Shown here piece after piece: positions 5,159 through 24,476 of a stretch of DNA of 64,000 bases. The stretch spans positions 504 to 64,503 of the forward strand of contig JALXEF010000048.1 of NCBI GenBank assembly GCA_027069855.1, written 5' to 3'. Both the position numbers and the translations under genes were made by a program. The notes beneath the pieces are model-generated. The model worked only from the letters and a program-made list of their open reading frames with translations. It made no database searches and had not been told where the DNA came from. Position 1 is the first letter of the stretch; every line of letters begins with the position of its first letter. This stretch comes from a candidate division WOR-3 bacterium. Its GTDB lineage: Bacteria; Hydrothermota; Hydrothermia; WGAB01.

Positions 5159-5220
5159 GCCCGGCATTGCCCCCGCCTGCTTCGGGGCGTAAACTTCGCC
5201 CGTCAAAAAGGAGGCCTGTG

Positions 5221-6939
5221 GTGGATTCCCGGGAGTTCACCCTGCGGGCACTGGTGCTGGGCGTGCTGCTGGCCGTTGTCTTTGGTGCCGCCAACGCCTA
5301 TCTGGGTCTGAAGGCGGGCATGACCGTTTCGGCGTCCATCCCCGCCGCTGTGGTCAGCATGGCGATCCTGCGGGGGCTGCTGCGTTCCGGCACCATCCTG
5401 GAGAACAACATCGTGCAAACCATCGCCTCGGCCGGCGAATCCCTGGCGGCCGGGGTCATCTTCACGGTGCCGGCGCTGATCCTGCTGGGGCTCAATCCTT
5501 CGCTGTTCCTCATCTTCCTGGTGGCTGCCACCGGAGGGCTTCTGGGGGTGCTGCTGATGGTGCCCATCCGCAAGCACCTCATTGAGGACGAACACGAAAC
5601 CCTGCCGTATCCCGAGGGCACGGCCTGCGCCGAGGTGCTGGAGGCCGGAGAAGAGGGCGGCCGGAAGGCCGGCGAGGTGTTCCTGGGCACGGGACTGGGC
5701 GCCCTGCTGAAACTCCTGCCCGCCGGATTCCGGCTCTATCCCGGCGCCCCCTCGGTGTTCCTCCGACCCCTGAAAACCGTGCTGGGCGTGGACCTTTCAC
5801 CGGCCCTGGTGGGGGTGGGCTACATCCTGGGGCTCCGGATCTCGGCTCTGGTTCTCGCCGGCGGCGTGCTGGGCTGGTTCGTGTTCATCCCCCTGATCGC
5901 CCATCTTCAGGCGATCCCGCTCCACGGTGCCGACCAGGTGTTTGAGATCTGGCACACCCGGATCCGCTATATCGGTGCCGGCGCCGTGCTGGCCGGCGGC
6001 ATCGTAAGCCTGCTGCGCAGTTTCCCGGCCATCCTCGCCACCCTCCGGAACCTCCGCCTGGGCCAGAGCCGCCGCGACCTGCCTCTGGCCTGGGTTCTGC
6101 TGGGGGTGACGCTCGGGTTCCTGCTCCTCTGGCTCGGCCCCTGGTTCGGCCTGGGCTTCTATGGGGCCCTGTTCTCGGTTCTCTTCGCCTTCCTCTTTGT
6201 GCTGGTGTCGGCCCGCATCGTGGGGATCGTGGGCAGTTCCTCCAACCCGGTTTCCGGCATGACCATCGCCACCCTGCTGGTCACCGCCCTGATCTTCGTG
6301 AAACTGGGGGCCAGCGGCGCAGCCGGTATGCTGAAGGTGCTCACCCTGGGGGCGGTGGTGTGTATCGCGGCCGCCATCGCCGGCGACACAGCCCAGGACC
6401 TGAAAACCGGCTTTCTGGTGGGGGCCACGCCCTGGAAACAGCAGATCGGCGAACTCGTGGGCGTGCTCACCTCCGCGGTCTTCATCGGCTGGACCCTGTA
6501 TCTCCTGCACCACGCCTACACCATCGGCTCCCGGGAACTCTCGGCGCCCCAGGCCACCCTGATGTCCTTAGTGGTCAAGGGCGTGTTTGAGGGCAACCTG
6601 CCCTGGTTCCTGGTGGGCACCGGGGTGTTCACCGCCCTCACCGTAGAACTGCTGGGAATCCCCTCGCTGCCCTTTGCCGTGGGCCTGTACCTGCCCCTGG
6701 AACTCTCCACCTCCCTGGCGGTGGGAGGATTGGTGGCGTACGCCACCCGCCACACCCAGCAGGGGGTTCTCTTTGCCTCCGGGCTCGTGGCAGGCGACGC
6801 GCTGACCGGCATCCTGATCGCCCTGGCCCTCACCCTGGGCCTTCGCCTTCCGGCGGGCGTGGGCTTTCCTCCGCTGGCCTGGGTGGCCCTCGTCACCCTG
6901 GCCGCGCTTTTGTACTGGCGCGGACGCAACCGGGCATGA
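5221..6939 (+). CDS. OPT-family oligopeptide transporter
   Basis: About 570 aa with 14-16 predicted TM helices. N-terminal REFTLRALVLGVLLAVVFGAANAYLGLKAGMTVSASIPAAV is the OPT signature region. GTG start after AAAGGAGG; the ORF-track start at 5167 is probably upstream read-through. Confidence 0.85.
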   Translation: MDSREFTLRALVLGVLLAVVFGAANAYLGLKAGMTVSASIPAAVVSMAILRGLLRSGTILENNIVQTIASAGESLAAGVIFTVPALILLGLNPSLFLIFLVAATGGLLGVLLMVPIRKHLIEDEHETLPYPEGTACAEVLEAGEEGGRKAGEVFLGTGLGALLKLLPAGFRLYPGAPSVFLRPLKTVLGVDLSPALVGVGYILGLRISALVLAGGVLGWFVFIPLIAHLQAIPLHGADQVFEIWHTRIRYIGAGAVLAGGIVSLLRSFPAILATLRNLRLGQSRRDLPLAWVLLGVTLGFLLLWLGPWFGLGFYGALFSVLFAFLFVLVSARIVGIVGSSSNPVSGMTIATLLVTALIFVKLGASGAAGMLKVLTLGAVVCIAAAIAGDTAQDLKTGFLVGATPWKQQIGELVGVLTSAVFIGWTLYLLHHAYTIGSRELSAPQATLMSLVVKGVFEGNLPWFLVGTGVFTALTVELLGIPSLPFAVGLYLPLELSTSLAVGGLVAYATRHTQQGVLFASGLVAGDALTGILIALALTLGLRLPAGVGFPPLAWVALVTLAALLYWRGRNRA

Positions 6940-7676
6940 GCCGATACCCCGTGGCCTACCGGCTGGACCTGGAGTATGACGGCACCGACTTCTTCGGCTG
7001 GCAGATCCAGCCGCAGCACCGCACGGTGCAGGGCGAACTGCTGGAAGCCGCCCGCCGCCTGTTTCCCGATCAGGAGATCCGGATCATCGGCACCTCCCGC
7101 ACGGATCGGGGGGTGCATGCCCGGCACCAGGTGGCCGCCCTCTGGACCCATCAGGCCCGGGATCCGGCCGAGGTGCAGGCCGCTCTGAACGCCCTCACCG
7201 GCGACGACCTCTGGATCCACCGCGTTGTGCGGGCCCCTGAGGGGTTCAATCCGCGATACGCGGCGCGGGCCAAGCGGTACCGGTACCGCCTGGTGCGGGG
7301 GCGGTCGCCCCTGCGCCGGCGCTACGCCTGGGAGTTTCCCCTGCCCCTTGATCCGGAAGTGCTGCATTCCCTGGCGCCGCTGCTCCTCGGGGAACACGAC
7401 TTCGGCCCCCTGAGCGTGGACCGCCGGGAGGACACCCGGATCCAGGTGCTGGAATCTCGCTGGCACCTGGAGGGCGATGAGGCCAGGTACACCATCGTGG
7501 CGCCCCGGTTTCTTTACAAAATGGTGCGCATCCTGGTGGGCACCATGGTGCTGACCGCGGCCGGGCGGCTGCCGCCCGACACCCTGCACCGTGCGCTCCA
7601 GGGCGAGCGGGTGCGCTTCGTGGTGGCGCCGCCCCACGGGCTCTGCCTGGACCGGGTTTTCTTTGAAATGCCGTAA
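6936..7676 (+). CDS. truA: tRNA pseudouridine(38-40) synthase
   Basis: 246 aa. YDGTDFFGWQIQP and TSRTDRGVHA (catalytic Asp) motifs. 4-nt overlap with the OPT stop. Confidence 0.9.
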   Translation: MSRYPVAYRLDLEYDGTDFFGWQIQPQHRTVQGELLEAARRLFPDQEIRIIGTSRTDRGVHARHQVAALWTHQARDPAEVQAALNALTGDDLWIHRVVRAPEGFNPRYAARAKRYRYRLVRGRSPLRRRYAWEFPLPLDPEVLHSLAPLLLGEHDFGPLSVDRREDTRIQVLESRWHLEGDEARYTIVAPRFLYKMVRILVGTMVLTAAGRLPPDTLHRALQGERVRFVVAPPHGLCLDRVFFEMP

Positions 7677-7710: not shown

Positions 7711-8985
7711 ATGGGGTTTTTCCTGCCTTTGCTCCTCCTTACCGCCACGGTGCAGGAGCGGGTCCTCCCCAACGGCATGCGGGTGATCCTCAAGGAGGAC
7801 CACTCCGCCCCTCTGGTGGATGTCACGGTCGTGGTCAAATCCGGTGCGGTGTACGAAGCCGATTCCACCCTGGGCATGACCCACTTCCTGGAGCACCTGC
7901 TCTTTGACGGCACCGAAACCCAAACCCGCGAACAGATCCGCGATCGCTTCGACGAACGGGGCATCTACTTCAACGCCTTCACCCGCCACGACTTCACCGC
8001 CTACCTCATCAACGGCCCCTCGGAGTTCATTGACGACGGCATCCGAAACCAGGCCGACATGTTGATGCACTCCATCCTGCCCGAGCACGAACTGGAAAAA
8101 GAACGCCAGGTGGTGATTGAAGAGATGCACAAGGACCGGGCCCGCCCCTCGGAGGTGGCCGACGAACTCTTCCGAAGCATCGCCTACGCCGGCACCCCCT
8201 ACGCCAAGCCCGTGCTGGGATACGAAGAGCAAATCCTCCGGGTGAAACGCGGCACGGTGTACCGCTACTACAAAGCCTTTTACCGGCCCGACAACATGAT
8301 CGCCATCGTGATCGGCGACTTTGACCCGGACCACATCGTGAAGGTGCTGGAAGACGCCTACGGCCCCTCCCCCGACACACCTCTGCCGCCTGCCCCCGAG
8401 ATTCCTCCCTTCCAGCCGGAAGGCACGCGGGTGGTTCAGAAAACCTGGCAATTCCCCAGCACCTACCTGATGGTGGCCCTGCCGGCGCTCCCTCCCGACG
8501 ATCCCCGGGCCCCGGCCCTGGAGGTGCTTGTAGAACTCCTGAACAGCGAGGGCGACTCCCCGTTCCTGCAGCAGGTGGTGGCAGGCGACCATCCCCTGGC
8601 CGTGGAAGCCTACTTCTCCTACGAAAAGCACCTGGGGCTCAACACCCTGCAGTTGACCGCAAAGCCCAATTCCCCGGCGGACGCCCGGCGGATCCTCCAG
8701 ATCCTCCAGAACACCCTGTCCGACCTTTCCTGGATCACGGATGACATGGTGCGCCGGACCCGAACGGCCCTCGTGGCCGACCACTACTTTACCACGGAGA
8801 GTTTCACCTACGAGGGCATGTACCTGGCCTACTGGGTGGCCCTCGGAGGCAGCTACGACCTGTACCAGCGTTTTTACGACGGCATCCGGCAGGTATCGCG
8901 GGACCAGGTGCTGGCAGCGGGGCAGGCCGTGTTCCAGCCCCTGCGGTATGTGGCCGTCATCGTAGGACCGGGAGGTGCCCGATGA
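7711..8985 (+). CDS. M16-family zinc peptidase (insulinase-like), catalytic subunit
   Basis: Start at MGFFLPLLLL after GGAGG; the ORF-track start at 7591 overlaps truA and was rejected. HFLEH (HxxEH) zinc motif present. Confidence 0.85.
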   Translation: MGFFLPLLLLTATVQERVLPNGMRVILKEDHSAPLVDVTVVVKSGAVYEADSTLGMTHFLEHLLFDGTETQTREQIRDRFDERGIYFNAFTRHDFTAYLINGPSEFIDDGIRNQADMLMHSILPEHELEKERQVVIEEMHKDRARPSEVADELFRSIAYAGTPYAKPVLGYEEQILRVKRGTVYRYYKAFYRPDNMIAIVIGDFDPDHIVKVLEDAYGPSPDTPLPPAPEIPPFQPEGTRVVQKTWQFPSTYLMVALPALPPDDPRAPALEVLVELLNSEGDSPFLQQVVAGDHPLAVEAYFSYEKHLGLNTLQLTAKPNSPADARRILQILQNTLSDLSWITDDMVRRTRTALVADHYFTTESFTYEGMYLAYWVALGGSYDLYQRFYDGIRQVSRDQVLAAGQAVFQPLRYVAVIVGPGGAR

Positions 8986-10307
8986 ACACCCTGAGAGCCG
9001 CCGGCCTGGGGCTTATGGCTGCCGCGGTGCTGGCCCTGGGCTGCGTTCAAAAAACCGAAAAACCCATTGTCAAAACCGTCCTGCCCAACGGGCTTACGGT
9101 GATCGTGAAAACCGTGCCCGGAAGCCCGGTCAGTGCGATCCACCTCCTGGTGGGCCACCGGATGGCCTTTGAGAAGAAACCCGGCGAAAGCAACCTGGTG
9201 CAGATGATGCTGGACCAGGGGGCGGGCGACCTGGACCGCCAGGCCATCGCCCGGCGCATTGAGGAACTGGGCGCCCAGTTGAAAACCCACGACAACCCCT
9301 ACTTCCCCTTTGACGACTACTACAACTCCCGCGACTTCGCCTATGTCCGCTTCAAGGTGCTCTCCGAAAACCTGGAGCCGGCCCTGGACTTCTTTGCCCT
9401 GCTGGTTCGCCGGCCGACCTTTCCGGAAAAGGAACTGGCCCGGATCAAGGCCCGGGTGCTGGCCACCCTCCGCGAGAGCCAGGTCATCCCCGACAAGGTG
9501 GCCCGCAACCGCTTTTACAGCCTGCTGTTCCAGGGTTCTCCCCTGGCCCACCCCATCCTGGGCACGCCGGAATCGGTGGCCGAGATCACACGCGATGATC
9601 TGGTGCGGTACTACCAGGCCGCCTATGTGCCGGCGAACTGCATCCTGACCATCGTGTCGGATCGGCCGGCGTCCTGGGTTCTGGAACGGGTGCGGAAACT
9701 GTTCGGCGACTGGTCGGGCTCGGCGAACCTGGCCCCGGACACAGCCGCCCTGAAGCCGGTGGAGCCCCAGACGGTGGAAATCCCGGTGCCCGGCAAACGG
9801 GCCTACATCTACATGGGCACCAAGATTCCGGGGCTCCGCGACCTGGATGCGCCGGCGCTGCGGGTGGCCGCCATGGTCCTCTCCGACCGCATGGCCGGTG
9901 AACTGCGGGAGAAACGCGGCCTGGCCTATCGGCTGGGCGCCTTCACCCGGTTCTACAGCCCGGGCGTGGGCGTGTTCGCCCTGGTGATGGGCACCAGTTC
10001 CCACAAGTACGCCGAAGCCCGGAAGGGCATGCAGGAAATGCTGGAGTCGCTGGTACAGAACCCGCCCACCGAGCAGGAGATCCGCCGGGTGGTCAACGCC
10101 TCCTGGGGCAGCCACCTGCGGTACCACCAGAAGAAGATCAACCAGGCCTACTTCCTGTCGCTCTATGAGTACCTGGATCCGGGCTACGAGTACGACCTGG
10201 CCCAGATCCGGCTTTTGCGGCAGGTGCGGCCTGAGGATGTGGTGCGGGTAGCCCGCAAGTATCTGCAGCCCAAACAGATGGTGCTGGTGGCTGCCGGAGG
10301 CTTTTAA
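8982..10307 (+). CDS. M16-family peptidase partner subunit (no HxxEH motif), lipoprotein
   Basis: 441 aa. Lipobox LALGC. M16 N- and C-domains but no inverted zinc motif. ATGA-coupled to the upstream M16 gene. Confidence 0.8.
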   Translation: MNTLRAAGLGLMAAAVLALGCVQKTEKPIVKTVLPNGLTVIVKTVPGSPVSAIHLLVGHRMAFEKKPGESNLVQMMLDQGAGDLDRQAIARRIEELGAQLKTHDNPYFPFDDYYNSRDFAYVRFKVLSENLEPALDFFALLVRRPTFPEKELARIKARVLATLRESQVIPDKVARNRFYSLLFQGSPLAHPILGTPESVAEITRDDLVRYYQAAYVPANCILTIVSDRPASWVLERVRKLFGDWSGSANLAPDTAALKPVEPQTVEIPVPGKRAYIYMGTKIPGLRDLDAPALRVAAMVLSDRMAGELREKRGLAYRLGAFTRFYSPGVGVFALVMGTSSHKYAEARKGMQEMLESLVQNPPTEQEIRRVVNASWGSHLRYHQKKINQAYFLSLYEYLDPGYEYDLAQIRLLRQVRPEDVVRVARKYLQPKQMVLVAAGGF

Positions 10308-10315
10308 AGGGAGCC

Positions 10316-11269
10316 ATGGCCAGGGTGAGCCTGCTGATCCCGGCCTACAACGAGCGGGAGGTGGTGCCGTACCTGCTGGAAGAACTGGAGGCCTTTATCC
10401 GGGCCCGGCGGCTCACCCCGCAAGATCTGGAGGCCGTGATCGTGGACGACGGCTCCCGGGACGGCACGTACCAGGCCCTGCAACAGGAACTCCAGCGCCG
10501 GCCCGGGCTCCAGCCCTTCGTCAAACTCGGCCGCCACTCCAAAAACCTGGGCAAAACCGCCGCGCTGGTCACCGCAGCCAGCCTGGCCACCGGCGAGGTC
10601 TTTGTGGTGTTTGACGCCGATCTCCAGTACACCCTGGACGACGCCCTGAAACTCGCCGAAAAGGTCCTGAAGGAAGGGTACGATCTGGCCGTGGGCTGGA
10701 AACAGGGCGACTACCCCAAGCGTGTGGTCTCGGGCATCTACAACTGGCTCTCGCGCAAACTCTTCCAGTTGCCGGTTCACGATATGAACGCCATGAAGGC
10801 CATCCGCGCCGAGGTCTTTTACCTGCTGGCCCTGCGCAAAGACTGGCACCGGTACATCGTGCCCCTGGCCGTGGAACGGGGGTTTACGATCACCGAGGAA
10901 AAGGTTCTCCTGCGGCCGCGCCGCGCGGGCCGCAGCAAGTACACCGGCTTCTGGCGCATCGTGGTCGGCATCGCCGATCTCCTGGCCGTGAAGTTCCAGT
11001 TGACGGTGATGCGCAAACCCCTGCTCTACCTGGGAACCCTGAGTGCGGTGTTCTTCATCGCCGGCCTGGCCGTGGGGCTTTTCGCCCTCTGGCTGCGGTA
11101 CGGCCTGCACCACGGCTACCGGCCGCTTCTGTATCTCGTCATTCTGCTGCTGCTCTTGGGTGCCATTTCCCTGACCCTGGGCCTGCTGGGCGAGGTGGTG
11201 TCGGGCGTGGAAGACCGTTTTGACGCCTTTGAACGCCGCCTGTTCCGCCTGGTTCGGCCCAAAGACTGA
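10316..11269 (+). CDS. Family-2 glycosyltransferase (polyprenyl-phosphate sugar transferase, GtrB/DPM1-like) with C-terminal TM helices
   Basis: LLIPAYNERE...VIVDDGSRDGT and VVFDADLQY (DxD) motifs, plus two C-terminal hydrophobic helices. Confidence 0.85.
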   Translation: MARVSLLIPAYNEREVVPYLLEELEAFIRARRLTPQDLEAVIVDDGSRDGTYQALQQELQRRPGLQPFVKLGRHSKNLGKTAALVTAASLATGEVFVVFDADLQYTLDDALKLAEKVLKEGYDLAVGWKQGDYPKRVVSGIYNWLSRKLFQLPVHDMNAMKAIRAEVFYLLALRKDWHRYIVPLAVERGFTITEEKVLLRPRRAGRSKYTGFWRIVVGIADLLAVKFQLTVMRKPLLYLGTLSAVFFIAGLAVGLFALWLRYGLHHGYRPLLYLVILLLLLGAISLTLGLLGEVVSGVEDRFDAFERRLFRLVRPKD

Positions 11270-11287
11270 AAACCTCAGGAGGTTGGT

Positions 11288-13006
11288 ATGGACATTCAGG
11301 GCAAAACCATCCTGCTCCTCGGCGGAGCGGGAGAGGTGGGCATGGCCATTGCCCGCAAGTTGCTGGAAGACCGGGAACACCCCAGAAAACTCATCATCGC
11401 CTCCCTGAAACAGGAAGAGGCTGAGGAGGCGGTCCGCGAACTCCAGGAGGAATTCCAGGAGGTGGAGGTGGAATTCGCCACCGAGTACGGCAACATCTTC
11501 GTGCGGGAGGAGTTCAAGGACCGGGCCTGGTGGGAACTGCAGGCCGACCCGGCCTGCCAGGAAGCCCTGATGGACGACATCCTGAACGAACTGTCTCCGG
11601 AGATCCTGGAAAACTCCACGGTGTACCGCATGATCCTGCGCCATAAGCCCCACCTGATCGTGGACACCATCAACACCGCCACGGCCCTGGCGTATCAGGA
11701 TGTGTACACCACGGCCCGGCAGGCCCGCGAACTCCTGGGGGACGGCGACGAAGCGGCCCTGAAGAACATGGTGCGGCGATTGCTTTCCACCCTGTACATC
11801 CCGCAACTCGTGCGCCATGTGCAGATCATGCACCGGGCCATGGTGGACGCAGGGGTGCAACTCTACCTGAAGGTGGGTACCACCGGCACCGGCGGCATGG
11901 GCCTGAATATTCCTTACACCCACGGCGAGGAACGGCCGTCGCGGGTACTGCTTTCCAAGTCCGCCGTGGCCGGGGCCCATTCCCTGCTCCTGTTCCTGGC
12001 CGATCGCACACCCGGAGGCCCGGTGGTCAAGGAGATCAAACCCGCCGCCCTCATCGCCTGGAAGGCCATCCGATCGGGGCGAATCCGCAAGCGGGGCCGG
12101 GAGTTTCCCCTGTACCGGGTCACCCTGGACCAGGCAATGCCCCTGGAGCCGGGCCAGACCTTTGACCTCAAACGCCTGCCCGAAAGCCCGGCCGGCGACG
12201 AATACCTGAAGGCCGTGTTTGTGGATACCGGCGAAAACGGCGTATTTTCGCTGGAGGAATTCAAGGCCATCACGACCCTGCGGCAGATGGAGGCCGTAAC
12301 CCCCGAGGAGATCGCCGAGGTGGTGCTGGACGAGATCAAGGGCGACAACACCTCCTTTGATGTGGTGTCGGCCCTGGATGCCTCGGTGATGGGGCCCACC
12401 TACCGTGCCGCCTTCCTCCGGCCCCTGGTGATCCACAGGATGCACCGGGAAATGGAACGCACGGGCCTGGACTCGGTGGCCTTTGAGATCCTTGGGCCTC
12501 CAAGGCTTTCCAAGCTGCTCTTTGAGGCGGAACTCCTGAAACGGGTGTTTGGCACGATCCCCCGGGTGCTGGCTCGCTCGCCGGAGTCGTTGAGCCAGCA
12601 ACTCATCGCTTACCTGGAGGAGCACCCCCGGTTCCTGCAGGAGATCCTGGCGGTGGGCCTTGCAGTGCTGCTGCCCGGCCCGAAGCTGGTCTTCGCCCGC
12701 CGGCGGGACACCCTTCTGGACAAACACTGGGAACGCACCACCTGGCAGGCGACCGAGGAACAGATCCAGCGCTGGGCCCACAGCGAGTGGGTGGACCTTC
12801 GGCCGGAAAACATGGAACACTGGCAAAATCGTCTGCGCCGGTTGCTGCGTACCCTGGAAAAGGAGAATCAAACCACCGGCTCGCGCTTTGACCGGCCGCT
12901 GGACGCCTGGCCCCGGGACGAACACGGCGAACCCGTGGTAGATCCCGGCGAAACCGTGGGCTATCTCTTCATCGTGGAGGATGGCGGCGCCCGGAAAAAG
13001 CGGTAA
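11288..13006 (+). CDS. Uncharacterised 572-aa protein with N-terminal NAD(P)-binding Rossmann fold
   Basis: RBS AGGAGG 6 nt upstream. N-terminal TILLLGGAGEVGMAIARKLL (GxGxxG). The remaining ~450 aa have no motif I can assign; coding-like composition throughout. Confidence 0.65.
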   Translation: MDIQGKTILLLGGAGEVGMAIARKLLEDREHPRKLIIASLKQEEAEEAVRELQEEFQEVEVEFATEYGNIFVREEFKDRAWWELQADPACQEALMDDILNELSPEILENSTVYRMILRHKPHLIVDTINTATALAYQDVYTTARQARELLGDGDEAALKNMVRRLLSTLYIPQLVRHVQIMHRAMVDAGVQLYLKVGTTGTGGMGLNIPYTHGEERPSRVLLSKSAVAGAHSLLLFLADRTPGGPVVKEIKPAALIAWKAIRSGRIRKRGREFPLYRVTLDQAMPLEPGQTFDLKRLPESPAGDEYLKAVFVDTGENGVFSLEEFKAITTLRQMEAVTPEEIAEVVLDEIKGDNTSFDVVSALDASVMGPTYRAAFLRPLVIHRMHREMERTGLDSVAFEILGPPRLSKLLFEAELLKRVFGTIPRVLARSPESLSQQLIAYLEEHPRFLQEILAVGLAVLLPGPKLVFARRRDTLLDKHWERTTWQATEEQIQRWAHSEWVDLRPENMEHWQNRLRRLLRTLEKENQTTGSRFDRPLDAWPRDEHGEPVVDPGETVGYLFIVEDGGARKKR

Positions 13007-13649
13007 TCGGCCCCTGCTTCCGCTGTACCGCCACCTCCTCCAGGCCCTGGGGCCCCAGCATTGGTGGCCCGGAGATTCGGCCTTTGAAATCGCCCTGGGG
13101 GCGCTCCTCACCCAGAACACGGCCTGGCGGAATGTAGAGCAGGCCCTCCGGAACCTGCGCAACCGCGGCTGGCTCCAACCCGAAGCCGTGGCAACGGCGC
13201 CCCTGGAGGAACTGGAGCAACTGCTGCGGCCTTCGGGCTATTACCGGCAGAAGGCCCGGCGGGCCCGGGACCTGGCCCGCTGGTGGCTCGCCCACGGGGG
13301 CGAGGAGGGGCTCCGAAGCCTGCCCACCGAAACCCTGCGCAGGGAACTGCTCCGCCTCAAGGGCATCGGGCCGGAAACCGCCGATTCCATCCTGCTGTAC
13401 GCCTTCCATCGGCCGGTGTTCGTAGTGGACGCCTATACCCGCCGCATCCTCAGCCGGCATGGGTTCCCGCTGCCCCCGGATTACGAAGGGCTCCGGAAGT
13501 TCATGGAGGATCAATTGCCTCGCTCGGTGCCCCTGTACCAGGAGTTTCACGCCCTCCTGGTGGCCGTGGGAAAACACTTTTGCCGTCGTTCTCCCCGTTG
13601 CACCGGCTGCCCGGTGGCCGACCTCTGGGGGCCCGGCCAGGGGGTATAA
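12981..13649 (+). CDS. HhH-GPD superfamily DNA glycosylase-like protein (endonuclease III-related) with C-terminal Cys cluster
   Basis: 222 aa. LLTQNTAW and LKGIGPETADSIL (helix-hairpin-helix), then C-x6-C-x2-C near the C-terminus (CRRSPRCTGCP), an FeS-loop-like arrangement. The start is uncertain: no clear RBS and a 26-nt overlap with the upstream gene. Confidence 0.7.
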   Translation: MAAPGKSGNRPLLPLYRHLLQALGPQHWWPGDSAFEIALGALLTQNTAWRNVEQALRNLRNRGWLQPEAVATAPLEELEQLLRPSGYYRQKARRARDLARWWLAHGGEEGLRSLPTETLRRELLRLKGIGPETADSILLYAFHRPVFVVDAYTRRILSRHGFPLPPDYEGLRKFMEDQLPRSVPLYQEFHALLVAVGKHFCRRSPRCTGCPVADLWGPGQGV

Positions 13650-13661
13650 TAGCCCACAGTC

Positions 13662-15029
13662 ATGCAGTCCTGGCCCTTATTGCTCTTCGGCCTCTTCCTG
13701 CTCCTGACCCTGATCAACTATCGGTGGGGGCTGTACATCAGTCTGGCCTCGATCACCGGGTACATGCTGTTCCCCCACTTTGCCGGAGGTCCTCCCCTCC
13801 TCTGGCACGAACCCCTGGTGCCCTTTGTGTTCGTCATGTTCCTGTATGCCAAACGGGAAAAGATGGAGCCCGTCCTGGCTCTGAACCTGAAGGCGAACCC
13901 CATGCTGTATGCCACCGGCCTCTTCATGCTGGTGCTTGTGGGCCAGTACTTCCGGAACCCGGTGCTCACCTCCCGCCTGGGGGGCAGCGGCGGCTTCCTG
14001 CTCTTTTACCGCTTTGTGATTGACTTCCTGCTGATGATCATGGTGGCCGACGAGAGCATGCACCCCGAGGGCCGCCGCCGGATTTTCTGGAGCGTGCTGC
14101 TGGCCGCCTTACTCACCGCTGTCATCGGGGTGCTCGCCTACTACATTCCCTCGGTATACCTCTTCCTGGACCGTCTGGGGTTCACGGGCATCAAGGCCTG
14201 GCGGATCCTGGTGGACCCCCGAAGCGGTGTGGTCCGGTTCTTGATGCTGCAGATTCCGGCCTATTTCGGCCTGATCCTGATGGTTTTCAATCCCCTGGGG
14301 CTTCGGGGGCGATACCGGGTTCCCCTGGGCCTGTTCTTCGCCTTTGCCCTGCTGTTAAGCGGCGGCCGGGCCGTGTTCTGGGGCACCGTGCTTTCGCTGC
14401 TCCTCATCACGCTGTACCGGTACCGACGCCAGATGCTGGTGGTGGTGCTTGTGCTGGTGGGTTTCCTTCTGGTTTTCACCGCGGTTTCCCTTAATCCCGA
14501 GATCGTGCCCCCGGCGTACCGCCGGGTGTTCCGCATCACCGGCACGGAAAAGGAGATCTCCACGGTTCGGTTCTATGTGCACCGGCTGATGCTCAAGCAA
14601 ATCGCCCAGCACCCCATCCTCGGTGTGGGGTTCAAACCCGATGTCTTCATTCCGGAGTTCATCCCCCGGGAGGCCGCTTCGGAGTTCGTGCTCAAAAACC
14701 TGGCCGGAGGCGGCCACGGATCCTACTACTCGCTGCTCTACTTCTTTGGACTGGTGGGGTTTTTGCCCTACCTCTATGCCATCTGGCGGGCCCTCACGTT
14801 GCTGTGGGGCGCCCTCCAGAGCCGCGATCCGCCGGTGGTGCATCTGGCGCTCCTGTACCTGGCCTGGCTGGTGCCCACACTTACCATGTACTACGCCTTT
14901 TACCGCGGAGAGGCGCCGCAGCTCTTCTTCCTGTACGGCTTAATCAGCGGGTTGATCCTGGAGCAGAAGTATCGCGGGGCACCGGCAACCCGGGAGGCTC
15001 CGGCTACAGCCCGGTGGGCAGTTCAATGA
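13662..15029 (+). CDS. O-antigen ligase / Wzy-like polytopic membrane protein
   Basis: 455 aa with about 10-12 TM helices and a large loop region, typical of the Wzy_C/O-antigen polymerase-ligase superfamily. Confidence 0.6.
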   Translation: MQSWPLLLFGLFLLLTLINYRWGLYISLASITGYMLFPHFAGGPPLLWHEPLVPFVFVMFLYAKREKMEPVLALNLKANPMLYATGLFMLVLVGQYFRNPVLTSRLGGSGGFLLFYRFVIDFLLMIMVADESMHPEGRRRIFWSVLLAALLTAVIGVLAYYIPSVYLFLDRLGFTGIKAWRILVDPRSGVVRFLMLQIPAYFGLILMVFNPLGLRGRYRVPLGLFFAFALLLSGGRAVFWGTVLSLLLITLYRYRRQMLVVVLVLVGFLLVFTAVSLNPEIVPPAYRRVFRITGTEKEISTVRFYVHRLMLKQIAQHPILGVGFKPDVFIPEFIPREAASEFVLKNLAGGGHGSYYSLLYFFGLVGFLPYLYAIWRALTLLWGALQSRDPPVVHLALLYLAWLVPTLTMYYAFYRGEAPQLFFLYGLISGLILEQKYRGAPATREAPATARWAVQ

Positions 15030-22016: not shown

Positions 22017-24476
22017 ATGAAGCACCGCATCGCCCGCTGGCTCGGCCTGTTGTTGCTCGGAGGGTTCCTTGCGCTGCAGGCCCAGGAACTCTCGCCGGAT
22101 CTCTTGAAGCAGCTTCAGGGAGGCAAAGCCCAGGCCCTTCTGGACTCCCTGCGGCGCTTGCAGCAAGCACCCCCCACGCCCCAGTACCTGCCGCTGGTTC
22201 CCGAAACCGTGCGGGTTCCCCAAAAGCCGGAATACTCCACCATTGAACAGGCCTTCCGAACCGATACCCTGATCCCGGTGTCCCGCGACCTGCAGCAGTT
22301 CGGCTACGACCTGTTTGAACAGGCCTCCGAAATGCTCCAGGCCCTTTCCCAGAGCGAGGTGCTGCCCCCGGTGAGTGGCACCTATCGGCTCGGCCCCGGC
22401 GACCAGATCACCGTGCATGTGTGGGGCAAGATTGACGAGTCGTTCACCTTCACCGTGGATCCGAGTGGCGTCATCGTGCTGCCCAAGGTGGGGCCGGTGA
22501 ATGTGTGGGGCCTGACCTTTGCGGAGGCCACCCGTCTGATCCGCCAGCGCCTGGGCGAGGCCTTCAGCGGCGTGGATTTTTCCGTGTCGCTGAGCGGTCT
22601 TCGGAAGGTGCGCGTGTATGTTGTGGGTGAGGTGGAACGCCCGGGCACCTACACCCTTTCCCCTGTGAGCAATGTGCTGGATCCCCTGATTCTGGCCGGG
22701 GGTGTAAAGAAAACCGGGAGCCTGCGGCGCATCCGGCTTCTTCGGCAGAACGCCGACAGCGCCCGAACCCTGGACCTCTACCGGCTCCTGATCCACGGCA
22801 AACCTCCAAAGGTGTTGCACCTGGAGGACGGCGACATCCTGTTCGTGCCCACCATCGGCCCGGTGGTGGCCGTGGCCGGCGCCGTGCGTCGCCCGGCCAT
22901 CTACGAACTCCGGGGAGCAAGCACGCTGTGGGAGGTGCTGCAGTATGCCGGAGGCCTCTCCTTTCGGTCGGACGCCCACCGGATCCAGATCCAGCGCACC
23001 GAAGACCACCAGCGCCGGGTTGTCACCGAGATCACCCTGCCGGCGCCCCTATCGTCCCGGGAACTCCGGGCCCGTACCCGTCGCGTGCGGGTCCAGGACG
23101 GCGACCTGGTGATCGTGCAGCCCGTGCCCGCCGAGCCGCGCCGGTTTGTGGCTGTGCTGGGCAATGTGTTCCGGCCCGGTGCCTATCCCTGGCACCCGGG
23201 CATGACCCTGCTGGAGGCTCTGCAGGCGGCCGCGGGCTGGAAACCCGGCTCCTATCTGGACCATGTGGAGATCCTGCGGCAGCAGGAGGACGGCTTCCCC
23301 CAGGTGCTGTTCGCCAGCGTCACCCGCGCCCTTCAGGATTCTTCCCAGGACCTTTTGCTCGCCGAATGGGATACCGTGCGGGTGTACGCCATGCAGGATC
23401 TGCGAGCCCCGGACTCCGTGTGGGTGCAGGGAGCCGTGTATCAACCCGGCGCCTACCCCTATCTGCCCAATCTTCGGGCGGCCGACCTGCTGTTTCAGGC
23501 CGGCGGCGCCAAACCCTATGCGGCGCTGGAACATGTGGAGGTGTACCGGATTGATCCTGGAGAGGGCGCCCGCACGGTGGTGCTGAACCTCACCACCGAG
23601 GCCGACCGCCAGTATCCCCTGCGGCCGGGCGACCGGTTGCTGGTCCCCAGGCACCGGGCGTGGCAGCCGGAACAGGAGGTCATCATCACGGGCGAGGTTC
23701 GGTATCCCGGCCACTACCCCTTCGTACCCGGCCAGACCCTGCGCGACCTGATTGAGCGGGCCGGCGGCCCTACGGAACACGCCTATCTCGCCGGCCTGGA
23801 ACTCTATCGGTTTTCCACCGCCCGCCAGTTCCAGGGATTCAGGAAACAAGCGGAGGGTGCTTTGTACGAGGACCTCCTGTGGCAGCAAATGGGGCTCCAG
23901 CAGTCGGAACTCACCAAGGAGGAAAAGGAATTCCAGGAGGCCTATCTCCGCCAGAAACGCCAGGAAATCGTGGCCATGGCGGCCCAGGCTCTACCCGAAA
24001 CCCTGGACACCTACCTCTTGAAACCCCAGGAGGCAGAAACCCTGAAGGTGCACCTGGTGCTCCCCGCAAAGCGCCGACGCGTGGGCTTTTCCATGGTGGA
24101 CACCGCCGGGCTCTCCCTGCCGCTGGAACCCGGCGACTCGGTGCACATCCCCCTCCGCCCCACCACGGTCCAGGTACTGGGGGCCGTGTACTATCCGGGT
24201 GCCTTTGCCTATGTGCCGGGGTATCACCTGGAGGACTACCTGCGGCTGGCCGGCGGCCCGCGGGTGGGCGCCGACCGGAAACACCTCTATGTGGTGAAGG
24301 CTTCGGGAGCGGTGGCCCGGGATCCCCAGGATGTGGAGCCCGGCGACATCGTGTATGTGCCCTGGCGGCCCTACGCCCGCACCCCCATCCGGGTGATCCT
24401 CCGCGACTTTGCGTCCATCGTGTACCAGGCTGCGCTGGCCATCGTGGCCGTGTATTCCATCATGGCCACCCGTTAA
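22017..24476 (+). CDS. Polysaccharide export protein (Wza-like, multi-SLBB-domain periplasmic/outer-membrane protein)
   Basis: 819 aa with a signal peptide. Poly_export-like N-domain (GPGDQITVHVWG) followed by several repeats of the pattern D.V.V.PxxxxVxV.GxVxxPGxYxxxxGxTLxxxLxxAGG. Confidence 0.8.
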   Translation: MKHRIARWLGLLLLGGFLALQAQELSPDLLKQLQGGKAQALLDSLRRLQQAPPTPQYLPLVPETVRVPQKPEYSTIEQAFRTDTLIPVSRDLQQFGYDLFEQASEMLQALSQSEVLPPVSGTYRLGPGDQITVHVWGKIDESFTFTVDPSGVIVLPKVGPVNVWGLTFAEATRLIRQRLGEAFSGVDFSVSLSGLRKVRVYVVGEVERPGTYTLSPVSNVLDPLILAGGVKKTGSLRRIRLLRQNADSARTLDLYRLLIHGKPPKVLHLEDGDILFVPTIGPVVAVAGAVRRPAIYELRGASTLWEVLQYAGGLSFRSDAHRIQIQRTEDHQRRVVTEITLPAPLSSRELRARTRRVRVQDGDLVIVQPVPAEPRRFVAVLGNVFRPGAYPWHPGMTLLEALQAAAGWKPGSYLDHVEILRQQEDGFPQVLFASVTRALQDSSQDLLLAEWDTVRVYAMQDLRAPDSVWVQGAVYQPGAYPYLPNLRAADLLFQAGGAKPYAALEHVEVYRIDPGEGARTVVLNLTTEADRQYPLRPGDRLLVPRHRAWQPEQEVIITGEVRYPGHYPFVPGQTLRDLIERAGGPTEHAYLAGLELYRFSTARQFQGFRKQAEGALYEDLLWQQMGLQQSELTKEEKEFQEAYLRQKRQEIVAMAAQALPETLDTYLLKPQEAETLKVHLVLPAKRRRVGFSMVDTAGLSLPLEPGDSVHIPLRPTTVQVLGAVYYPGAFAYVPGYHLEDYLRLAGGPRVGADRKHLYVVKASGAVARDPQDVEPGDIVYVPWRPYARTPIRVILRDFASIVYQAALAIVAVYSIMATR

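Follow-up and report, generated by a model that had tools for sequence, protein, structure and literature searches.

A 572-residue PF27054-family protein in a mixed operon of a candidate division WOR-3 bacterium

Genes of the locus

We analysed a stretch of 64,000 nucleotides (nt) from a candidate division WOR-3 bacterium, referred to as the window, in which the gene for a 572-residue protein (11288–13006) lies in a run of closely spaced genes that a sequence-only reading had taken for a glycan-related cluster. All coordinates are positions in this window, and all genes of the array are on the + strand. The 572-residue protein adds a member to a Pfam family that is catalogued but has hardly been studied, PF27054 (Beta_methylindole_red_C; Ind2-like), within which it belongs to a strongly conserved, housekeeping-type subfamily without any characterised member. 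It is very probable that it is a genuine member of this family and not a dedicated glycan enzyme.

Four open reading frames (ORFs) follow one another head-to-tail directly 3' of a pair of M16 peptidase genes, an arrangement that had been read from the sequence and that ORF positions and Pfam matches bear out. They encode (i) a 317-residue glycosyltransferase of family 2 (GT2) of the polyprenyl-phosphate type (ArnC/GtrB/DPM1 type; 10316–11269; PF00535, E = 1.6e-25), (ii) the 572-residue protein, assigned to its family by precomputed Pfam annotation and ending in a family-specific region (residues 252–572; 12041–13003) with a beta-rich and then a helical subdomain, (iii) a 222-residue helix-hairpin-helix (HhH) DNA glycosylase of the HhH-GPD type (12981–13649; PF00730, E = 2.7e-17), MagIII/EndoIII-like and of the monofunctional type, and (iv) a 455-residue polytopic membrane protein of the Wzy_C family (O-antigen ligase/polymerase-like; 13662–15029; PF04932, 43.3 bits for a cutoff of 31.7). 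The spacing is operon-like, with gaps of 8, 18 and 12 nt between M16 and GT2, between GT2 and the 572-residue protein, and between HhH-GPD and Wzy_C, respectively, and a 26-nt overlap (12981–13006) of the 572-residue gene with the HhH-GPD ORF. A strong AGGAGG stands 7 nt 5' of the ATG at 11288, where the ORF for the 572-residue protein starts.

The GT2 protein is matched over its full length (residues 3–307) by the solved ArnC (9hwj, E = 3e-17) and GtrB sll0501 (5ekp), its translation displays the motifs DDGSRD and FDADLQ (DxD), and hydrophobic segments at residues 235–264 and 266–298 correspond to two C-terminal transmembrane (TM) helices. This full-length similarity to ArnC/GtrB, together with the two C-terminal hydrophobic helices, argues for a polyprenyl-phosphate glycosyltransferase; its best NCBIfam model is ArnC, at a score well below the equivalog cutoff, and every equivalog cutoff is missed. 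The Wzy_C protein gave no NCBIfam match and no PDB sequence match, and the 12 TM segments previously attributed to it could not be recovered, as a crude hydropathy scan gives about 9–10 segments and no firm 12. Judged from their sequences, the GT2 would be an undecaprenyl-phosphate sugar synthase and the Wzy_C protein a polymerase- or ligase-like protein of an envelope glycan, and the two may work together.

No flippase, chain-length regulator, initiating phosphoglycosyltransferase, further glycosyltransferase or sugar-nucleotide enzyme adjoins these two genes. Within ±10 kb, the only glycan-related genes are GT2, Wzy_C and a lone Wza-like exporter, all others being housekeeping genes; a larger glycan locus is not supported, as there is just this single Wza-like gene, 7 kb downstream and among housekeeping genes. 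The exporter (22017–24476; 819 residues, with Poly_export and at least five SLBB repeats) comes after pstSCAB-phoU and a small gene with an FeS-assembly domain, and neither Wzc, Wzx nor a glycosyltransferase adjoins it.

The four genes close an eight-gene co-directional array (OPT, TruA, M16, M16, GT2, the 572-residue protein, HhH-GPD, Wzy_C), which ends convergently on NIF3 and RuvB. Its start is formed by an oligopeptide transporter (OPT) and a TruA pseudouridine synthase (5167–7676; PF03169, E = 1e-94, and PF01416, E = 3e-28), with one 4-nt overlap and one 34-nt gap at the junctions, followed by the M16 peptidases of 424 and 441 residues (7711–8985 and 8982–10307), each with PF00675 and PF05193 and each also called as a gene on an identical contig. 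The best NCBIfam matches of this pair are the YfmH/YfmF models (73 and 45 bits for cutoffs of 250 and 285), which probably reflects generic M16 similarity. A role in the aminopentanol modification of elongation factor P (YmfF/YmfH/YmfI-like), suggested by the M16 pair, was considered and rejected, the scores being far under the cutoffs and the M16 linkage being found only in close relatives. Downstream of the array lie the pst-phoU operon and the lone Wza-like gene, then SpoIID, CorC, arginyl-tRNA synthetase, TonB, NAD kinase and SecD. Promoter-like and terminator-like sites are no more frequent than in shuffled sequence, and Rfam and tRNA scans of the whole window detected neither a tRNA or tmRNA nor any Rfam family at gathering threshold. 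The G+C content is 59–68% throughout the window, in a compact genome of roughly 65% G+C. Positions 10316–15029 are the tail of an ordinary mixed operon of functionally unrelated genes, not a dedicated glycan pathway.

Family and structure of the 572-residue protein

Local scans against Pfam and NCBIfam matched the 572-residue protein at residues 1–76 only, through Rossmann models and models of short-chain dehydrogenases/reductases (SDRs) that all scored below threshold (KR 17, F420_oxidored 19 and Sacchrp_dh_NADP 18 bits; DprE2 30.5 bits for a cutoff of 250); among the SDR family models, adh_short, KR, Epimerase and Polysacc_synt_2 all failed to reach it. The earlier remark that only an N-terminal Rossmann motif is recognisable is borne out by these scans. 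The Pfam copy that they used did not hold the PF27054 model, and membership of this family is taken from precomputed assignments, which are given for the identical product on the identical contig (where the gene table names PF27054 ‘Beta_methylindole_red_C’), for all of the 120 best homologues and for a divergent subfamily. The remaining approximately 450 residues had been thought to form a novel domain. This is true in so far as the C-terminal region has no solved relative, but not as regards its family, already catalogued as PF27054. The proposed glycan role, for its part, had been tied to a test of its own, namely homology to a family unrelated to glycans, and such a family membership is clear here.

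The family is large. A word-indexed search retrieved 7,441 homologues at E <= 1e-3, the best 120 of which are full-length (558–612 residues) and 45–99% identical to the 572-residue protein, and an exhaustive profile search of 1.84 billion representatives (50% clustering) retrieved 1,133 at E <= 1e-3 and 382 at E <= 1e-30. When one genome per species was scanned, at least 576 species were found to encode a relative. Carriers include Ignavibacteria, Melioribacteraceae, Kapaibacteria, Calditrichota, Kryptoniota, Gemmatimonadota, WOR-3 and Caldisericaceae, as well as Acidobacteriota (Vicinamibacteria) and Chloroflexota (Ardenticatena, Anaerolineae). The core subfamily is 45–55% identical across Ignavibacteriota, Calditrichota, Gemmatimonadota, WOR-3, Acidobacteriota, Chloroflexota and others. 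A search of the literature for this family in Ignavibacteria found nothing relevant, and domain fusions, considered as a clue to function, were discarded as single and probably chimeric cases.

A second, divergent PF27054 subfamily is widespread as well: it occurs in Patescibacteria, in the FCB group and, on hundreds of contigs, in gut Clostridia such as CAG:557. The member from CAG:557-type Clostridia (loci L094–L096) abounds in metagenomes of the human gut, being indexed as the exact protein in 1,102 blocks of the metagenome collection, and in these loci it is always followed by an AEC-family transporter (Mem_trans, PF03547) and a protein of roughly 485 residues without a Pfam match.

In a cross-phylum alignment of 28 sequences, the mean column identity is 53%, and the most conserved stretch is formed by residues 193–231 (YLKVGTTGTGGMGLNIPYTHGEERPSRVLLSKSAVAGAH), with the block consensus YxK(V/I)GT(T/S)GTGGMGLNIPYTH(G/S)EE(R/K)PS(R/K)(V/I)LLSK(S/T)A(V/L/M)AGA. 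DTGENG and W(V/I)DLR are conserved in the same alignment, and the Gly-rich motif GGAGEVG at residues 12–18 has invariant G12, G15 and G18. Ten divergent members, including one from Wukongibacter sp. M2B1 (P0231), align collinearly with the 572-residue protein from end to end, at 26–32% identity and with about 40 invariant columns. These include G12, G15, G18, N129, T132, Y193, T198, GGMG at 202–205, H212, S218 and K224 and, in the C-terminal part, GEN at 315–317, W501, D503 and L504, together with QM...T.E and W.DL. The block around K224 varies more in the divergent subfamily.

An AlphaFold2 model built on the 28-sequence alignment (mean predicted local distance difference test score, pLDDT, of 82.7) has an N-terminal domain, at about residues 1–250, with an atypical SDR-like Rossmann fold and the Gly-rich NAD(P) motif. 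An INTAT segment stands in the place of the SDR motif NNAG, and the invariant K224 lies in the helix after beta-5. A loop modelled at pLDDT < 50 carries the conserved residues T198, Y210/H212 and S218, which, judged from sequence, are together with K224 candidates for the catalytic positions of SDRs. The C-terminal 321 residues also gave a confident model when folded alone (pLDDT 84; predicted template modelling score, pTM, 0.84), in which a beta-rich subdomain precedes a helical one. PDB searches with the single sequence and with a profile matched only the N-terminal 60 residues or so, the best profile matches being Polysacc_synt_2-type dehydratases (3pvz, E = 1e-5, and 6bwc), and no solved structural relative of the C-terminal approximately 320 residues was found. 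The top Foldseek matches were Pen, PseB and WbjB.

Gene neighbourhoods of the homologues

To assess the conservation of the gene order, we compared the loci of close relatives with two sets of distant ones, namely 80 species-level GTDB loci (42–52% identity, ±6 kb) and 76 metagenome loci (43–53% identity), and tallied the Pfam families of immediate neighbours in two rounds (135 + 117 = 252). The complete block was retrieved only in close relatives (at least 83% identity): the identical contig, an 83%-identical relative and fragments at 99% and 88%. At 66% and 62% identity, GT2 and Wzy are absent, speE, pyruvoyl-dependent arginine decarboxylase, speE, agmatinase and Mut7-C lie upstream, and HhH-GPD is still downstream. 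In the 53%-identical relative, the gene is preceded by the same polyamine operon and followed by a class I/II aminotransferase and NusB, and GT2, Wzy and HhH-GPD are all absent. In the distant loci, relatives of the GT2, Wzy or HhH-GPD of the window were found near the homologue in 0 of 80 GTDB and 0 of 76 metagenome cases, and in each of the two tallies of neighbours every glycosyltransferase or Wzy family stays below three occurrences. Conserved synteny with glycan genes, which the sequence-only reading had put forward for checking, is thereby contradicted: the GT2/Wzy linkage exists at 83% identity and above, is gone at 53–66%, and is absent from all 156 distant loci.

Neighbours of other kinds do recur. 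The first tally is headed by PTS_EIIA_2 (25 occurrences, divergently oriented) and further includes YbjQ, tails of type IX secretion system substrates, S46 peptidase, cytidylate kinase, RluB, tetratricopeptide repeat proteins, class I/II aminotransferase, FtsX/MacB and aldehyde dehydrogenase; the second comprises a small holin-like membrane protein, GAF/PAS kinases, M2/M3/M32 and M29 peptidases, pyridoxal phosphate (PLP) enzymes, aldehyde ferredoxin oxidoreductase (AFOR) and amidohydrolases. Single contexts are also found, with unrelated genes in Ardenticatena and Rosettibacter, glycerate kinase in a metagenome-assembled genome of Planctomycetota, and NusB/Metallophos. In about 25 loci of Ignavibacteria and Melioribacteraceae (L009–L086), the PF27054 gene is divergent from a gene resembling the EIIA(Ntr) component of the phosphotransferase system, beyond which stand histidyl-tRNA synthetase, a 172-residue protein and a SpoU methylase; this arrangement is a lineage-specific synteny of housekeeping genes.

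These comparisons bear directly on the view that the 572-residue protein is a sugar-modifying oxidoreductase, either an enzyme that dehydrates, epimerises or reduces nucleotide sugars or a DprE2-like polyprenyl-phospho-sugar reductase, acting with GT2 and Wzy_C. Its gene does start 18 nt after an ArnC/GtrB-type GT2 gene, in one operon with Wzy_C, and in Vicinamibacteria a different GT2 gene (494 residues, Glyco_transf_21-like) lies 38 nt upstream of the homologue; the top N-terminal matches (DprE2, 3pvz and 6bwc) and the Foldseek matches to Pen, PseB and WbjB point the same way. Some of these enzymes also lack the canonical Tyr (CapE-type SMK triads). However, these sequence matches span about 60 residues of a generic Rossmann fold, with DprE2 at 30.5 bits for a cutoff of 250, GT2 and Wzy are lost at 53–66% identity and absent from the 156 distant loci, no glycan family is recurrent among the 252 neighbours, and the family is named for, and has one member embedded in, tryptophan-derived secondary metabolism. 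Two GT2 adjacencies in about 15 distinct lineage contexts are weak evidence for a glycan link, and we consider a sugar-modifying role very unlikely.

The most persistent linkage is that with HhH-GPD, whose gene lies directly downstream of the 572-residue gene at 83%, 66% and 62% identity even though different genes come to stand upstream, the ORFs overlapping in two cases. The glycosylase itself scores 63.5 bits with PF00730 (cutoff 26.2); its best NCBIfam model is PRK13913 (3-methyladenine DNA glycosylase; 117 bits for a cutoff of 192), and its best solved match is Helicobacter pylori MagIII (1pu6, E = 7e-24, with the catalytic Asp aligned), followed by Deinococcus EndoIII. The HhH hairpin GIGPETADS, the catalytic Asp in VVDAYT and a C-x5-C-x2-C motif are invariant in four orthologues, and the lysine of the bifunctional EndoIII is absent. 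The intact HhH motif, the catalytic Asp and the MagIII match suggest an ordinary monofunctional alkylpurine DNA glycosylase. The idea that this protein had been recruited for another role finds no sign in its favour, since motif and catalytic Asp are both kept. As for the Cys cluster ascribed to it, the HhH-GPD type and the conserved Cys stand, but the cluster is not that of EndoIII: the four ligands C-x6-C-x2-C-x5-C are not present, only the three invariant Cys of C-x5-C-x2-C, and the match to EndIII_4Fe-2S is sub-threshold (18.1 bits for 20.5). The orthologues (from the window and loci L087, L088 and L089) thus display a Cys pattern distinct both from that of MagIII, which has no cluster, and from that of EndoIII with its four Cys.

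The persistence of this pairing and the ORF overlaps would fit a functional nucleic-acid pair, in which the 572-residue protein might, for example, process or reduce damaged or modified bases or the products of abasic sites together with the MagIII-like glycosylase, its C-terminal helical subdomain contacting DNA or RNA. RluB, Cmk, NusB, SpoU, histidyl-tRNA synthetase, TruA and Mut7-C also recur as neighbours in other lineages. Against this, the pairing is found neither at 53% identity nor in any of the 156 distant loci, housekeeping RNA genes commonly adjoin any gene, and the one family member with known biochemistry is a small-molecule ketoreductase. Such a pair therefore has a very slim chance of being real. 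A further reading is that the core PF27054 subfamily (at least 576 species and at least eight phyla, at 45–55% identity) is a housekeeping enzyme whose reaction is assigned to no gene yet. Its SDR core would do without the canonical Tyr, its C-terminal fold has no solved relative, and the translational coupling to the MagIII-like glycosylase in this lineage could mean the handling of damaged or modified bases rather than 2-oxo-acid reduction; this reading we regard as unlikely.

A role in polyamine or arginine-derived metabolism was also weighed. In three relatives at 53–66% identity (L088, 2484–8405; L089, 141–3778; L090, 1390–8825), the PF27054 gene closes a polyamine operon, which comprises S-adenosylmethionine decarboxylase, two spermidine-synthase homologues, pyruvoyl arginine decarboxylase and agmatinase, with 12-nt gaps or overlaps, and in Acidobacteriota a pyrroline-5-carboxylate (P5C) dehydrogenase gene lies near the homologue. 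In these three loci, a Mut7-C (PIN-like RNase) gene is always directly before the PF27054 gene. However, no polyamine gene is found near the homologue in the other 80 + 76 loci, nor in the window, so that the link is confined to one lineage; to our knowledge, the aminopropyl-agmatine route needs no NAD(P)-dependent step. A polyamine role is extremely improbable.

A proposed Ind2-like reductase and comparison with known enzymes

By its name, the family ‘Beta_methylindole_red’ can be read as that of beta-methylindole-3-pyruvate reductase, i.e. Ind2 of indolmycin biosynthesis. Two papers describe Ind2 as the ketone reductase that makes indolmycenic acid from 3-methyl-indolepyruvate with NADH (PMC8246080; PMC5925218), and the indolmycin and chuangxinmycin clusters make inhibitors of tryptophanyl-tRNA synthetase (TrpRS) and carry a spare TrpRS (PMC5925218). 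The divergent full-length member P0231 (27% identity, collinear) sits in a secondary-metabolite cluster, and the gene directly 5' of it encodes a bona fide extra TrpRS (TIGR00233, 219 bits for a cutoff of 177). A spare TrpRS adjoining a PF27054 reductase follows the logic of indolmycin and chuangxinmycin, which lends indirect support to the Ind2 reading. A named Ind2 was found neither among the cluster-member names of the close and divergent relatives nor in a search from the divergent member, and a tblastn search for Ind2 against plasmids returned nothing.

The Wukongibacter cluster (L093, 1–17671; CP138200.1, 2549792–2567462) is apparently undescribed. It contains two B12-radical-SAM enzymes, DUF362/Fer4, a carrier protein, a carbamoyltransferase, the extra TrpRS, the PF27054 reductase, a 657-residue protein without a family match, a thioesterase, a RaSEA-like radical SAM enzyme, BtrH_N, PanD and a large non-ribosomal peptide synthetase (NRPS), and the presence of a spare TrpRS points to a TrpRS inhibitor as its product.

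The explanation that we favour for the 572-residue protein is that of a soluble cytoplasmic enzyme of the Ind2 family that reduces a carbonyl with NAD(P)H, standing outside any glycan pathway, and as a whole we hold it to be about evenly balanced. In such an enzyme, NAD(P)H would be bound by the atypical SDR-like Rossmann domain through GGxGxxG, and the substrate would be held between the invariant loop-helix GT(T/S)GTGGMG...YTH...S...K224 (T198, H212, S218, K224) and the C-terminal domain with its invariant GEN 315–317, QM...T.E and W.DL. The carbonyl that accepts the hydride would most probably be the 2-oxo group of an amino-acid-derived 2-oxo acid, and the product the 2-hydroxy acid. That 2-oxo acids specifically are reduced is a tentative proposal, somewhat on the doubtful side, drawn from the studied Ind2, the TrpRS-linked cluster, the downstream aminotransferases and the peptide and amino-acid neighbours. 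Class I/II aminotransferase genes lie directly downstream of the homologue in two unrelated lineages, P5C/aldehyde dehydrogenase, PLP enzymes, AFOR and several peptidases are recurring neighbours, OPT and M16 lie upstream in the window, and an AEC-family transporter gene lies 3' of the gene in gut Clostridia. These neighbours softly point to an amino-acid-derived substrate.

Several observations weigh against this explanation. The excess of amino-acid and peptide genes among the neighbours may be mere background, and no universal gene partner of the homologues was found. The link to Ind2 is carried by the name of a Pfam family and the TrpRS-linked cluster of one divergent member, and at only 26–32% identity to the divergent subfamily, the substrate specificity and even the type of reaction may differ. 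The best N-terminal profile matches are SDRs of the UDP-GlcNAc 4,6-dehydratase type and DprE2, and GT2 is directly upstream in two unrelated lineages, that of the window and Vicinamibacteria. Lastly, the position four residues before K224, the site of the catalytic Tyr in SDRs, appears to hold Val or Leu in SRVLLSK224; it is read as Val in the protein of the window, and as Val or Ile in the core subfamily as a whole. The loop of highest conservation (residues 200–217), moreover, is modelled with low confidence (pLDDT < 50).

The locus does not hold as a glycan cluster, and neither a new enzyme of sugar modification nor a moonlighting function of the DNA glycosylase should be inferred from it. 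Its main interest is the uncharacterised housekeeping subfamily of Ind2-like reductases: in a large and strongly conserved family of thousands of sequences, the single biochemically studied member found is Ind2, and the C-terminal 320 residues are without a solved structure. The reaction of this subfamily, once assigned, would annotate one gene in hundreds of environmental genomes and would also explain how an antibiotic pathway recruited this enzyme family.

The GT2 shares with ArnC, GtrB and DPM1 a GT-A domain with DxD and two C-terminal TM helices, and the Wzy_C protein resembles Wzy/WaaL in being polytopic with a Wzy_C domain above threshold, but both genes are far under every equivalog cutoff of these enzymes. 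The HhH-GPD protein shares with H. pylori MagIII the HhH-GPD signature, the catalytic Asp and the absence of the HhH lysine (monofunctional type), whereas its C-terminal C-x5-C-x2-C motif is lacking in MagIII; compared with EndoIII, it has three Cys instead of four.

In contrast to classical and extended SDRs (ketoreductases, AerF, MalC, Gre2, PseB, PglF, Pen), the 572-residue protein is twice as long, with large helical insertions at about residues 81–119 and 130–188, a YxxxK Tyr that appears to be replaced, an added Gly-rich loop GTGGMG, and a 320-residue C-terminal region without a solved counterpart. With Ind2 from Streptomyces griseus, it would share PF27054, by family name and precomputed assignment, and the two would be alike in an N-terminal Rossmann domain of the NAD(P) type joined to a family-specific C-terminal region. 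An indolmycin-like context was seen solely for the divergent Wukongibacter member: near the gene of the window there is no methyltransferase, TrpRS, NRPS or other element of such a context, but instead OPT, TruA, M16, GT2, HhH-GPD, Wzy, NIF3, RuvB and the pst operon. Unlike Ind2, the protein of the window belongs to a separate and much more conserved subfamily (GGxGxVG, GT[TS]GTGGMGLNIPYTH), whose genes are single, mostly stand-alone and set in the primary-metabolism contexts of many phyla.

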